DNA of 64,000 nucleotides, taken from assembly GCA_964537935.1 (NCBI GenBank), contig CAZICT010000003.1:2013-66012 (forward strand), given 5' to 3'. Within the stretch, counting starts at the first letter, position 1. Each line of letters opens with the position of its first letter. A program made the position numbers and the translations under genes. Positions 2,768 through 64,000 of this stretch are shown here, one piece after another. Origin of the DNA: an uncultured Candidatus Saccharibacteria bacterium (GTDB taxonomy: Bacteria > Patescibacteriota > Saccharimonadia > Saccharimonadales > CAZICT01). The notes under the pieces are model-generated. The model ran no database searches. It had not been told where the DNA came from and saw nothing but the letters and a program-made list of their open reading frames with translations.

Positions 2768-4069
2768 ATGAGCAGACTGCAAAAAGATATAGCCGGCTGG
2801 TTGCTGCTTGTAGGATTTATTGCCGTACCGGTTGTGCTCTGGCAATCTTACACGGGTACATCTGCGTGGGCCAGCACCTCGAGCAGTCTTAGATCAATCG
2901 GGCAGTTGAGCGGTCTGATTGGAGCAAGCTTGTTTTCGCTTAATTTTATTTTGGCTGCACGGCTTGGATGGGTTGAGGAACTTATGAGCGGGCTACCCAG
3001 GATTTATACCTTCCATCACTTTTCCGGAATAGCGGCGCTCATTTTGCTGCTAATGCATCCGTTGTTTCTTGGGCTGCAGTATTTGCCGTTTTCATTTTCT
3101 TTAGTGGTGGATTTCTTTGTACCCGATTTTAGTGATAAGCCAAAACTGCTGGGAGCTATTGCGCTGCTGACTATTGTTGTATTGCTGTTCATAACTTTAT
3201 TCATGCGTATTGCCTACCATAAGTGGAAGGCGACCCATCAATGGCTGGGCCTGGCACTTTTGCTGGCAAGTTTGCATGTGTACTTAATTCCAGGGCACCT
3301 ATCGTCGGCGCCGGGGCTGCGCTACTACATGGTTTCGGTAATCATTGCCGGATTGGTGGCATTTACGTACCGAGTTTTGTTTGGCCGCTGGCTAATCCGC
3401 CGTTATCCGTACAAAGTCAATAAAGTAAATGTGCATGATAATGGAACGGAGGTAATCTTATCGCCGCTTGGTAAGCCGGTACGATATAAAGCCGGTCAGT
3501 TCTTTTTTATCCGGGTTCATGATGCAGCCGAGGTTAGTAAAGAATCGCATCCGTTTTCATTTACCAGCCCGCCAGGCAAAAAATATATCTCGTTTACCGC
3601 CAAGCCGATCGGAGATTATACTGCCACGCTAAAGTTGCTGTCTCCAAAAACCACGGTTGATATTGAGGGCCCCTATGGGCGCTTTATATTTAACGATGCC
3701 CGACAAAACCAGGTATGGATAGCTGGCGGGATCGGCATTACGCCGTTTATGAGCCGCGCCCGGGAGCTTTTGGACGGACAACAGGCCAGGGTAACACTCT
3801 ATTACATTGTTAGAAATAAAAAAGATGCAATATTTTTGAAAGAATTAACGGATATAGCCGCTAAAAACAATAATTTTGAGTTAAGGGTTTGGGAAAGCTC
3901 CAAAAAAGGCAGATTAAGTACCGATGACATCATCGAAGTTAACGATGCAGCCCCTCGCAGCTATTTTATTTGCGGCCCGGATTTGATGATGAAAAGCCTA
4001 AAGCAAGGACTGCTAAAAGCAGGCGTTAACCGCGGCGATATCTACACTGAAGAATTCAAGCTTTATTAA
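2768..4069 (+). CDS. ferric-reductase/NOX-family flavocytochrome (6-TM heme domain + FAD/NAD(P)H dehydrogenase domain)
   Basis: Two His pairs in TM helices (HHFSGIAALILLLMH and HQWLGLALLLASLH). HPFSFTS FAD motif, GGIGITPF NAD(P)H motif, C-terminal FICGP. Confidence 0.8.
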   Translation: MSRLQKDIAGWLLLVGFIAVPVVLWQSYTGTSAWASTSSSLRSIGQLSGLIGASLFSLNFILAARLGWVEELMSGLPRIYTFHHFSGIAALILLLMHPLFLGLQYLPFSFSLVVDFFVPDFSDKPKLLGAIALLTIVVLLFITLFMRIAYHKWKATHQWLGLALLLASLHVYLIPGHLSSAPGLRYYMVSVIIAGLVAFTYRVLFGRWLIRRYPYKVNKVNVHDNGTEVILSPLGKPVRYKAGQFFFIRVHDAAEVSKESHPFSFTSPPGKKYISFTAKPIGDYTATLKLLSPKTTVDIEGPYGRFIFNDARQNQVWIAGGIGITPFMSRARELLDGQQARVTLYYIVRNKKDAIFLKELTDIAAKNNNFELRVWESSKKGRLSTDDIIEVNDAAPRSYFICGPDLMMKSLKQGLLKAGVNRGDIYTEEFKLY

Positions 4070-30393: not shown

Positions 30394-30514
30394 AGGGTGT
30401 CGTGGGTGAAGATTGCCGGTGGCAATCTGCAAGAGAACCTTCACCTGACAGCTGTGCTGTCTTGGCAGAAGTTCTGGGCCCGCAGAATGTGGGCGAGTCC
30501 CACTGGACCCTCCA
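30394..30514 (+). ncRNA. partial tRNA-Lys 3' copy whose T-loop is interrupted by a four-helix element of about 86 nt (unclassified structured RNA)
   Basis: 30394-30407 and 30494-30516 are identical to tRNA-Lys. 30408-30493 replaces a single T-loop nucleotide and folds into four hairpins. A homologous element lies at 61938-62023. Confidence 0.6.
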
Positions 30515-61880: not shown

Positions 61881-62029
61881 CGGGGATTGGCGCAGTTGGC
61901 TAGCGCGCTTAGGTCTTTGGACCGCGAGGTCGGAGGTGAAAACAGCCTGTGGCTGTTTGCAAGGAAGCCTTCCGATGCCAACTGGTTGGCAATTGTGAAG
62001 CTTCGGGGTCGCGGAACGTGACCGAGTCC
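61881..62029 (+). ncRNA. tRNA-Pro 5' copy (defective anticodon arm) fused at the T-loop to a four-helix element of about 86 nt (unclassified structured RNA)
   Basis: 61881-61910 and 61919-61937 are identical to tRNA-Pro. The insert at 61938-62022 starts at the same T-loop position as 30408-30493. Only CGAGTCC of the tRNA follows. Confidence 0.6.
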
Positions 62030-62064
62030 GTAGGAGTCGAACCTTTATAGTAGAATGTTGATAT

Positions 62065-62141
62065 CGGGGATTGGCGCAGTTGGCTAGCGCGCGCGGTTTG
62101 GGACCGCGAGGTCGGAGGTTCGAGTCCTCTATCCCCGACCA
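62065..62141 (+). tRNA. tRNA-Pro(UGG), CCA encoded
   Basis: CGGGGATTGGCGCAGTTGGCTAGCGCGCGCGGTTTGGGACCGCGAGGTCGGAGGTTCGAGTCCTCTATCCCCGACCA folds as a cloverleaf. Confidence 0.96.
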
Positions 62142-63769
62142 CGATCGAAATCATTCGATATTAAGAACCCTTTCCAGGGTTCTTTTAATTTGAAATCAAC
62201 TTTGTACCCCTGTTTTTTGTCCTTGAGCGGGGCAGTAATAGTGAAGTTCGAGAAAAAGTTTTTTAATACGTTGTTCATTAGCTCAATATCATGTATTTGC
62301 GGGATTGTAACAGATGCATTTCCAATAAGTTCGAGATATTTCTCATAAGTTATTACCGAGCCTTTTAGTGCTTTCCTCCGGTCAGTTGCTTTCTTGAATT
62401 GGTTTTCTAACTTCTTCAGCTCTTTCTGCATTGCATCCAGATCATAGTGTTGCTTCATGCTAGGATCATTGGCCACTAAGTTCTTAGCATTTTCATATTT
62501 TTCCTCTTTAGTGGCGATAACCTTCATGAGTTCAGCAATCTGTGAAGAGAGTTTTCGTGCGCGTTTCTTGTTAGTCTCTTCAACACGCTTAACATGTTCC
62601 TTGTAGTTTGACCGAGTTGTAAAGCGGTACTTGTTAAAGAAGTCTATTACTTCATTCAGGACCACCTTTGCACGAATGCTCTTGTTTTTGAACGGACAAG
62701 TGAATGTCTCGCATTTGTAATAGTAGTAATACTTAGTTCCGGGCTTCAGTTTCTTAGATGTTATCCCTGAAGCAAATGGTTTTCCGCAGTGACCACAGTC
62801 AATCATACCTCTTAAAAGCATGGCTCTCGTGGTTCTTGGGTTTTTAACCAGCATAGAGGACTCCAGGCGACCTGATTTGAAGCTAGACACCCTATTTATC
62901 TTCATGAAGTCTTCAACGGTCACAGCAGGCTCAAAATCATAATAATCGTGCAAATTGACCGTATGTTTCCCGTACTTTAGTACTCCGGCGTAGGTAGGGT
63001 CCTTCAAGAGTTTTGAAATAGCATCTTTATCCCATTTGAACCGTATGTGTTCTTTTCTATATGGCTTCACCGTGTAAGTAGTTGTGTTTAGCCATTTTGC
63101 TATATCAGCTTGTGTCTCCTTATTAAGCCGTTCTTCGAAAACACGTTTTATTAAAATGAAGTTCTCACCATCAGGTTGCAGCCTCCGTTGTTCATCAATA
63201 TAGTATCCATGTTTCTTTTTACCTAGGAATTGACCGCTTTCAGTGATCCTTTTATTGCCTCTTGTTACAGACTCGCTCAAATGCTCAGAGTATTGCTTAG
63301 AGAGAACGAAGGATATGCCTAATGTCATTTTTCCAGTAGGTGTATTTTCGAAAGAACTTGTAGCAAACTGGAGATCCTTGATAATGCCTTTATCCAGAAG
63401 GTCAATGATCTCTCCGGCCTCTTTCATATTTCGAGAGAGTCTATCAGGATGCCAGGAGAGGATTGCGTCAGCTTTACCATCAATGATTTCTTTAATGACG
63501 CTCCTAAACTCAGGACGCGTCTCCGATTGTTTTGCGGAGGCCTTTTCTTTAACGACTTTTACGATGTTAAGAGATCGAGGATTTGCTATCCGTTCCATAC
63601 ACTCCTTAATTTGATCAGGTATGGACCTCTCTTGACGCTCCTCGTCATAGGTAGATTTCCTAGCGTATAAAATGTATCGGAGGTTAGTGACGTCAATTTC
63701 AGAAGGACTATCATCTTGAAGACTACCTTGAAGTAGTTCGTGAAGCTCTTTAGGGTTGCTGGGTAGCAT
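62129..63769 (-). CDS. large serine recombinase (resolvase catalytic domain + recombinase domain + zinc-ribbon/coiled-coil)
   Basis: YILYARKSTYDEERQERSIPDQ (catalytic Ser), ILSWHPDRLSRN, Cys cluster CGHCGKPF...YYYKCETFTCPF. The last four codons overlap the tRNA-Pro 3' end. Confidence 0.9.
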   Translation of the reverse strand: MLPSNPKELHELLQGSLQDDSPSEIDVTNLRYILYARKSTYDEERQERSIPDQIKECMERIANPRSLNIVKVVKEKASAKQSETRPEFRSVIKEIIDGKADAILSWHPDRLSRNMKEAGEIIDLLDKGIIKDLQFATSSFENTPTGKMTLGISFVLSKQYSEHLSESVTRGNKRITESGQFLGKKKHGYYIDEQRRLQPDGENFILIKRVFEERLNKETQADIAKWLNTTTYTVKPYRKEHIRFKWDKDAISKLLKDPTYAGVLKYGKHTVNLHDYYDFEPAVTVEDFMKINRVSSFKSGRLESSMLVKNPRTTRAMLLRGMIDCGHCGKPFASGITSKKLKPGTKYYYYYKCETFTCPFKNKSIRAKVVLNEVIDFFNKYRFTTRSNYKEHVKRVEETNKKRARKLSSQIAELMKVIATKEEKYENAKNLVANDPSMKQHYDLDAMQKELKKLENQFKKATDRRKALKGSVITYEKYLELIGNASVTIPQIHDIELMNNVLKNFFSNFTITAPLKDKKQGYKVDFKLKEPWKGFLISNDFDRGRG

Positions 63770-63926
63770 GAGTCCAGCTTACCAAAGTTCGAGAGCTTTT
63801 ACGTAAAAGAAATTAAAGGAAAACTTTTCTACCAGAAGAGTCGAAGACATACATTTCTTCAGTAGTAGATTGCTTGGTTTTCTTTTTAGGCATAGATATA
63901 GAGTAGCTTTTCTGGTCATCCCCGAC
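62131..63926 (-). mobile_element. putative minimal integrative element (recombinase only) in the tRNA-Pro 3' end
   Basis: 9-bp direct repeat ATCCCCGAC at 62131-62139 (in the tRNA) and 63918-63926. The interior looks AT-richer by eye and holds only the recombinase gene plus about 150 bp. Confidence 0.4.
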
Positions 63927-64000
63927 AATAATTTTTTCTGTATATAGAAGGACGGTAGTTAGTCAGGTCGTCGGGCGCCGTCGATGATTGTAGCTAAGGG

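Follow-up and report, generated by a model that had tools for sequence, protein, structure and literature searches.

In the 64,000-nucleotide stretch of DNA analysed here (the window), positions 62142 to 64000 very probably form the recombinase-proximal end of an island of about 6.85 kb, inserted by a large serine recombinase at the 3' end of a tRNA-Pro(TGG) gene in a member of the Saccharibacteria (TM7). A preliminary description of this DNA had proposed an integrative element at this tRNA end, driven by a large serine recombinase, and on this point our results agree with it. It had also taken the element to be about 1.8 kb long, to hold the recombinase alone, to end at 63926 and to be bounded by a 9-bp direct repeat, ATCCCCGAC. 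These claims have to be revised: the right end lies 6,845 bp from the tRNA and beyond the window edge, the same element goes on past 63926, five open reading frames (ORFs) stand between the recombinase and the right attachment site (attR), and the attachment (att) core in common is only 6 bp long (CGACCA). Positions above 64000 are given in extended coordinates, that is, the window plus an added contig, L001. The main features are:

62065 to 62141, + strand: tRNA-Pro(TGG), called by ARAGORN and matched by the Rfam tRNA model with 63.4 bits.
62129 to 63769, - strand: large serine recombinase with its Pfam domains, 546 aa, in the integrated, C-terminally swapped form.
62136 to 62141, + strand: common core CGACCA, in both attL and attR.
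62142 to 62191, + strand: P' arm, CGATCGAAATCATTCGAT...GAACCCTTTCCAGGGTTC followed by a T-run, within the region coding for the recombinase C-terminus.
62142 to 64000, no strand: left 1.86 kb of the 6,845-bp element, which ends at extended 68985.
68957 to 68985 (extended): attR, matched by a hidden Markov model (HMM), with a terminator hairpin after it.

According to the mechanism that we propose, the enzyme would recombine the attP on the element's circular form with an attB composed of the T arm, acceptor strand and CCA of the tRNA together with its terminator. Up to the junction, this attP would read ...AGTTCGAG-N13-TCTCGACCA, and after it CGATCGAAAT...GAACCC..GGGTTC, and the crossover would fall within CGACCA, probably at the CA of CCA. 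As this attP lies inside the recombinase gene, the circle would encode a 586-aa protein; on integration, the gene's last 43 codons would end up at the distal end of the island, with three tRNA codons and a stop in their place, giving 546 aa. The island carries five cargo genes, one of them for a candidate defence ATPase.

To delimit elements of this family, we compared two loci, L104 and L107, whose hosts are 99% identical on both sides of the same tRNA-Pro(GGG) site and carry different cargo. Their recombinases show 81% DNA identity; the L104 cargo comprises a reverse transcriptase (RVT_1) and insertion sequence (IS) elements, and that of L107 HigB, a helix-turn-helix (HTH)/M78 protein and a P4 cII-like gene. 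At the left end, element-specific sequence begins immediately 3' of the tRNA CCA. The right end reads ...AGTTCGAG-N13-TC(A/T)TCTCGACCA, and the element-specific part stops right before TCTCGACCA; past this point, 99% identity between the hosts resumes, and a terminator hairpin comes next. With this pair, each boundary can be pinned to CGACCA, the final 6 nt of the tRNA. The right-end motif, AGTTCGAG-N13-TYNTCTCGACCA, was present in 15 other distinct tRNA-Pro loci, at 3,990 to 9,883 nt from the tRNA, and no family member in which it was found had an attR closer than 3.9 kb to the tRNA. Exact tRNA matches of at least 11 nt downstream of the recombinase were rare, occurring only in L016 (18 nt) and L046/L047 (11 nt); the near-absence of long tRNA-derived repeats is as predicted for a serine integrase (PMC9303363). 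Long tRNA direct repeats were therefore dropped as a guide to the ends, as they cannot locate those of serine-integrase elements. The 6-bp core is likewise as expected of a serine integrase, and unlike a direct repeat of the tyrosine-integrase style. In L016, an extra 18-nt copy of the tRNA 3' end (120-137) stands about 170 nt past its attR.

Regarding the element in the window, an exact-protein look-up returned L001, a Logan contig of 8,310 nt (SRR7082976) that is identical to window positions 62114-64000 (0 mismatches in a 1,887-nt overlap) and contributes 6,423 nt more. Among the protein look-ups for the window's own contig past 64000, all that came back were Logan contigs broken off at the tRNA. 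An attR HMM built without the window's genome matched extended positions 68943-68986 (38.8 bits, E 5.9e-12). The sequence at this right end is AAAGTTCGAGAAGAAGTAGTTTATCTCGACCA up to the junction and AAACAAGGGCCCGCTCGAAAAGCGGGTTTTTGTTTTGG beyond it, and directly after attR comes CCAAAACAAGGGCCCGCTCGAAAAGCGGGTTTTTGTTTTGG, a tRNA-type terminator. Its plan past the junction (CCA plus an A-rich part, a GC hairpin, a T-rich part plus TGG) is the architecture seen 3' of tRNA-Pro in the empty-site relatives L002 and L014. From the motif match and the native-type terminator at 68985, we place the element at 62142-68985, 6,845 bp when counted to the end of CCA.

The composition of the region is in accordance with this extent. 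The preliminary description had the 1.8-kb interval as AT-richer than its surroundings, and it is: 40.3% GC against a host mean of 45.6%, a value equally low in only 3.5% of host 1.8-kb windows. The low GC carries on past 63926, as far as 68985 at least (42.3% for 63927-68985), and the whole element (62142-68985), at 41.8%, is lower than every 6.8-kb host window. Between the recombinase and attR we identified five cargo ORFs, all on the + strand, one of which encodes an AAA_14/DUF4143 ATPase matching the candidate defence family PDC-S01. When Pfam and PADLOC were run on this cargo and on a circular relative, only AAA_14/DUF4143 (PDC-S01) and DUF5681 were recognised, and none of the cargo genes was found in any of 21 relatives of the locus. 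The cargo of related islands (L104-L107, L111) is defence-like or selfish, and further includes a Beta_protein gene with HigB and HTH/M78, a Z1 domain with a DNA methylase, and SocA_Panacea.

As for the host locus, the tRNA lies on the + strand at 62065-62141 and adjoins an ABC1 kinase gene, an arrangement kept in relatives; the flanking kinase places the host in Saccharibacteria/Saccharimonadales. The order from kinase to tRNA-Pro(TGG) is kept in the 21 species-level relatives, in which 0 to about 8 kb of variable DNA come after the tRNA before conserved host genes return. Only one of the 21, L016, has a recombinase homologue at the locus, in the same position. Presence is therefore variable, as is cargo, which is unlike even in the 99%-identical hosts.

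The 546-aa recombinase and its overlap with the tRNA agreed with the preliminary description: the ORF lies at 62129-63769 on the - strand and has Resolvase, Recombinase and Zn_ribbon_recom domains, its final four codons and stop lie inside the tRNA gene, and the protein ends in ...DFDRGRG. The catalytic domain (PF00239, E 4e-20, residues 33-179) carries the catalytic serine, S39, in an ARKST motif; R37, S39 and R45/Q46 were invariant among 24 homologues, as were the four zinc-ribbon cysteines C325, C328, C353 and C358 among homologues. PF07508 and PF13408 were matched as well. An AlphaFold model of a relative, P0036 (pLDDT 82), shows the complete serine-integrase architecture, with long helices at 392-440 and 450-475 following the zinc ribbon and a tail of two helices modelled with modest confidence. 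Its top Foldseek matches were the SPbeta, phiC31, LI and Bxb1 integrases, and a single-sequence PDB search gave one weak match, to the catalytic domain. The protein thus has what defines a large serine recombinase: a catalytic domain with a nucleophilic serine, a recombinase domain, and a zinc ribbon with a coiled-coil insert.

More than 1,300 homologues were detectable, the best 120 of them at 47-79% identity, and our inspection took in 80 metagenome loci as well as several long contigs. The ORF end overlaps a tRNA 3' end by about 10 nt in about 60 of the inspected loci; the tRNAs are Pro (TGG, GGG, CGG), Gly(GCC) and Arg(GCG). Most of the other inspected contigs break off at the end of the recombinase ORF. 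Relatives have the recombinase at tRNA 3' ends and lack the 9-bp repeat.

The anatomy of the sites could be read from these loci. The T arm, acceptor strand and CCA of tRNA-Pro(TGG) form the B arm, and attL is the tRNA 3' end plus P'. Only CGACCA is common to attL and attR, and the crossover would have to lie within it; with a crossover in its last 6 nt, the tRNA remains intact. P and P' are weakly inverted-symmetric (GTTC / GAAC), with a symmetry score that is maximal at -0.5/+0.5 relative to the last A, that is, centred on the CA of CCA. Judging by this arm symmetry, CA is probably the central (crossover) dinucleotide. The P' consensus, nnAnCGAAATcAT...GAACCCnnnnnAGGGTT, was found at every tRNA-Pro and tRNA-Gly locus, and the real attP of the circular L109 has it too. 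Its hairpin, GAACCCTTTCCAGGGTTC plus T-run (62165-62191), encodes KEPWKGF and is conserved in all loci; it probably terminates the tRNA transcript, replacing the terminator displaced to the far end.

In the B arm, GTTCGAG of the tRNA T-loop stands at -23..-17 from the last A of CCA, while in the P arm it stands at -28..-22 in 18 attP sequences, 5 bp further out. In the Listeria integrase, the rule is that the zinc-ribbon-domain (ZD) motif lies 5 bp nearer the centre in attB than in attP (PMC3783163), and the T-loop GTTCGAG would accordingly serve as the outer (ZD) motif of the B arm. The site geometry of serine integrases (att of about 40-50 bp, short core, ZD shift) was found for one arm pair, the only one examined because the B' arms are not conserved. 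For this element, the predicted attP is GTAGTTTATCTCGACCA joined to CGATCGAAATCATTCG, and the predicted empty attB junction is TCTATCCCCGACCA joined to AAACAAGGGCCCGC, also written TCTATCCCCGACCA joined to AAACAAGGGCCCGCTCG. A scan of IMG/VR for the family attP pattern gave zero matches. In one relative, L112 (Logan SRR27185445, reverse-complement 1-1620), the P' arm is joined to non-tRNA DNA of 54-65% GC, where only 11 nt, CACCCCGACCA, match the tRNA-Pro end; this junction could reflect a secondary site, integration into DNA of foreign origin (perhaps from an actinobacterial host) or a chimeric assembly.

The preliminary description had stated that the recombinase C-terminus depends on the junction, and this proved to hold across the family. 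In silico joining of P to P' at 16 loci left the frame that continues the recombinase open for 34-46 codons past the junction in 16/16, the other frames averaging 8 and 19. The extension peptide is conserved, GR(D/E)xxxxLEL(F/Y/L)x(Y/F/W)I, with a hydrophobic end ...(I/V)(I/V/L)(F/Y/L) before the stop. For the element in the window, the predicted protein of the circular form has 586 aa versus 546 in the integrated form, and the 43-codon remainder of the gene sits intact at 68985. Two database proteins, P0036 (593 aa) and P0092 (592 aa), bear the tail extension. P0036 comes from L109 and L110, 5,667-nt contigs from two samples. The ends of each contig overlap by 30 nt; once this is trimmed, one contig is an exact rotation of the other (5,637 nt, 0 mismatches), and neither holds a tRNA. 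Their joined attP reads AATAGTTCGAGTAGGAGCCGTTTCTCTCGACCA on the P side and CAATCGAAATCACC...GAACCCATCCCAGGGTTC on the P' side, direct evidence of a circular form in the family. The attP thus lies inside the integrase gene in all 16 reconstructions and in two real attP contigs. That two junctions recombine to an empty target and a circle is documented at the level of the family, by the boundaries read from L104 versus L107 and by the circular L109/L110 with the joined attP.

Directly upstream of the recombinase there is a further conserved feature:

63813 to 63893, - strand: small ORF of 26 aa (MPKKKTKQSTTEEMYVFDSSGRKVFL).

A small ORF stands upstream of the recombinase in most family members, with the C-terminal motif Y(V/L)xDxxGxK(I/V)(I/Y)L before the stop, and that of the window is conserved at the peptide level in L112, L105, L106 and L107. 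There is a resemblance between its end and that of the full-length recombinase tail: ...GxK(I/V)(I/Y)L in the small ORF and ...G(N/L)(I/V)(V/L)(F/Y) in the tail, each followed by the stop. The 26-aa ORF is a candidate regulator or recombination directionality factor (RDF); no known RDF family was found in the element, and this conserved ORF is a candidate only. One could speculate, albeit with considerable doubt, that the gene split is a built-in directionality switch, in which only the circle makes the full-length, integrating 586-aa integrase. The tail-less enzyme of the integrated copy, with its tRNA-encoded end, might then allow excision together with the small upstream ORF. If true, the layout of Mx8 and SSV would have here its first counterpart among bacterial serine recombinases, within a clade specialised on tRNA 3' ends across Saccharibacteria.

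Several observations weigh against the 6.85-kb island as drawn here. Its right end lies outside the window and is placed there by an identical public contig and a motif match. Neither an empty site nor a circular form of this very element was found, and L109/L110 could in principle be tandem repeats instead of circles. No RDF, replication or transfer genes were recognised in the Pfam/PADLOC annotation. In the tRNA-Gly and tRNA-Arg subfamilies, neither the DNA motif nor the tail-peptide motif revealed an attR within 10 kb. Finally, L001 ends inside a second tRNA-Pro, with anticodon CGG, which starts at extended 70376, and, in the stretch 68986-70423 (L001 1-1437), the 1.4 kb between attR and this gene have 39.2% GC and two ORFs (258 and 74 aa) without family match. 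This AT-rich stretch makes a composite or tandem structure possible.

One could argue, then, that the mobile unit is larger or composite and reaches from tRNA-Pro(TGG) to tRNA-Pro(CGG) at 70376, about 8.3 kb, either as two tandem elements or as an island swapped via shared tRNA-Pro 3' halves; we consider this improbable. L001 does end in the 5' half of tRNA-Pro(CGG), the 1.4 kb after attR are AT-rich and unannotated, and the order tRNA-Pro(TGG), recombinase, cargo, tRNA-Pro(CGG) recurs in L028, L046, L047 and L055. Both tRNA-Pro genes also occur with 0.2-3.7 kb of variable DNA and no recombinase between them in L013, L018-L020 and L022, the first four of which would suit such a unit. Composite arrays do occur: at the right ends of L027 and L031, the P arm of attR is directly followed by another P'-like arm (GAACCC..GGGTTC), which indicates elements or remnants in tandem. 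However, in L046/L047 the attR motif precedes the CGG tRNA (4,977 vs 5,885 nt), and in L022 the two tRNA genes are 190 bp apart, which makes both of them host genes. In addition, a complete attR, the remainder of the split gene and a native-type terminator all stand at 68985. A related idea, that the element brings tRNA-Pro(CGG) along within its attP and crosses over in the T arm that the tRNAs share, was rejected, as attR and its own terminator lie 1.4 kb before that tRNA, the tRNAs are adjacent in L022 and other elements have their attR without a tRNA.

It is very unlikely that the island is a fixed, immobile remnant whose recombinase is domesticated or decaying beside the tRNA. Such a remnant would fit with the lack of a circular or empty form of the exact element and with an integrated gene deprived of its natural last 43 codons. 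Yet the ORF and its catalytic motif are intact, as are both att sites and the 43-codon remainder, a homologue occurs only in L016 among the 21 species-level relatives at the locus, hosts that are 99% identical carry different cargo, and a relative is present in circular form. From its sequence, this copy may well be active and mobile.

The smaller element of the preliminary description depends on the second copy of the 9-mer:

63918 to 63926, + strand: right-hand copy of ATCCCCGAC, in the leader region of the unit formed by the small ORF and the recombinase.

As described, the 9-mer is present twice, at 62131-62139 and 63918-63926 only, within the 64-kb window, and its left copy covers the 3' strand of the acceptor stem of tRNA-Pro(TGG) together with the discriminator base and the C that opens CCA. 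The repeat had been held to be beyond chance (below 1%). We generated 3,000 dinucleotide shuffles of 62142-64000 and searched them for any 9-mer in common with the last 30 nt of the tRNA, and 12.5% shared one; the real sequence has a second such 9-mer, TCGGAGGTT, at 63677 inside the recombinase ORF. The right-hand copy stands 25 nt upstream of the 26-aa ORF. It has no P-arm motif, and the attR HMM gave no match at 63890-63930. In the closest relative, L112 (79% aa identity), whose intergenic region is 73% identical in nucleotides to that of the window element, the homologous position reads TTGGTGGTAATT, and C[CT]CGAC is missing from that strand in the 300 nt upstream of the recombinase in 53/54 non-redundant relatives. 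The copy at 63918 is thus a lineage-specific chance match and not an att site. We also considered it as a conserved site at which the recombinase binds its own promoter, and ruled this out, as it is not conserved in relatives.

A minimal 1.8-kb, recombinase-only element bounded by ATCCCCGAC, in which ATCCCCGAC followed by aataattttt would be the ancestral tRNA end and the empty site would read tRNA...GAC followed by AATAATTTTTT, is thus contradicted by the data and extremely unlikely: in its favour are the two copies of the 9-mer, which ends at the same tRNA position as the 18-nt copy in L016, and the AT-rich interval, but the chance match, the missing att features and the relatives without the 9-mer speak against it, no attR of the family lies less than 3.9 kb from the tRNA, low GC and non-conserved genes carry on to 68985, the 43-codon remainder sits there and not at 63926, and long direct repeats are neither needed nor made by serine integrases (PMC9303363). 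Such an element would have both att junctions within about 2 kb and zero cargo; here attR is 6,845 bp away with five ORFs before it, and the smallest family member found measures 3.99 kb. Genes of the element past 63926 and relatives with the recombinase but no repeat are, moreover, the two observations that the preliminary description had itself named as refuting it.

Serine integrases are textbook avoiders of tRNA genes. The chemistry and site geometry of the enzyme described here are ordinary for a serine integrase; its target class and the position of attP in its gene are unusual. The order of catalytic domain, recombinase domain and zinc ribbon with a coiled-coil insert is that of the Listeria A118/LI, phiC31, Bxb1 and SPbeta integrases. 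As in the serine integrases of phages and integrative and conjugative elements, the core is short, the int gene lies beside att and the outer motif is 5 bp further out in attP. Unlike in those systems, the target is a tRNA 3' end instead of a protein-coding gene, the elements measure 4-10 kb and no phage or conjugation genes were recognised in them, attP is within the recombinase ORF and the sequence is very distant.

Partial counterparts are known. The small serine recombinase of the phiRSM filamentous phages of Ralstonia uses 13 bp of a tRNA-Ser 3' end as att core (PMC4471427). It shares with our enzyme the use of a tRNA 3' end by a serine recombinase, but it is of the small resolvase/invertase type without recombinase or zinc-ribbon domains, its vehicle is a filamentous phage, and no split of the int gene has been described for it. 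The Mx8 and SSV integrases reach across attP (PMC4383910), and Mx8 IntP and the SSV-type ('suicidal') integrases resemble the present case in having attP within the integrase gene and a tRNA target, so that integration alters or splits the integrase (PMC4383910, PMC8371274). These are tyrosine recombinases, whereas ours is a serine enzyme, and the likeness is one of gene layout and not of class. In the SSV type, moreover, the gene is cut into two large parts, while here about 43 last codons are swapped, which is nearest to the change from IntP to IntX in Mx8. According to a review of archaeal integrases, recombinases disrupting the gene that encodes them are confined to archaea (PMC8371274). 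A small cargo island, an intact tRNA, a tRNA-proximal integrase and strain-variable cargo are also features of the Islander/TIGER islands, a class whose defining marks are tyrosine integrases and a displaced piece of the tRNA, 20-45 bp long, against a 6-bp repeat here. The earlier hints of tRNA-targeting serine integrases are limited to the 14 of 297 serine integrase (S-Int) calls that TIGER placed at t(m)RNA genes in 2020, computational and unproven, which were previously unreported and 'will require experimental proof' (PMC7192596). Our literature search, of limited coverage, returned no paper on serine recombinases at tRNA genes in Saccharibacteria/Patescibacteria.

What these islands add is a clade of hundreds of homologues that uses the T loop and CCA end of tRNA-Pro, -Gly and -Arg as attB, with att sites that can be read and a relative that is present as a circle. 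An attP inside the recombinase gene is a natural experiment on the role of the extreme C-terminus in directionality, on which the swap may have an effect. The enzymes and their 50-bp sites, whose target sequence is in every Saccharibacteria genome, could become integration tools for a phylum very hard to manipulate genetically. Besides, the islands appear to bring defence-type cargo into very small genomes.

Upstream of the occupied tRNA there is one more feature, which is not part of the element:

61881 to 62031, + strand: decayed 5' copy of tRNA-Pro (positions 1-54), fused to a structured RNA-like module of about 95 nt, upstream of the real tRNA.

The module, of about 95 nt and three helices, also occurs at window positions 30406-30502 and in L002, L003, L014, L048, L081, L082/L085 and L104/L105/L107, with compensatory changes in 20/34 predicted pairs. 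Among its unpaired parts, GUGA, GCAAGG and a GCRGAAYGU loop are conserved. It gave no match in Rfam or IMG/VR, and Rfam on the region upstream of tRNA-Pro found only the tRNA itself. No protein gene is associated with it; the copy at tRNA-Lys precedes the core genes ComEC, YebC and RuvCAB. The module always adjoins a tRNA gene and lies within a tRNA-like pseudo-fragment. Downstream of tRNA-Lys, -Pro and -His, a duplicated tRNA 3' part holds it in its T loop, with a second terminator coming next, and upstream of recombinase-occupied tRNA-Pro and tRNA-Gly, it comes after a decayed 5' copy of the tRNA. It may be either a small RNA gene or a miniature mobile element that targets tRNA genes.

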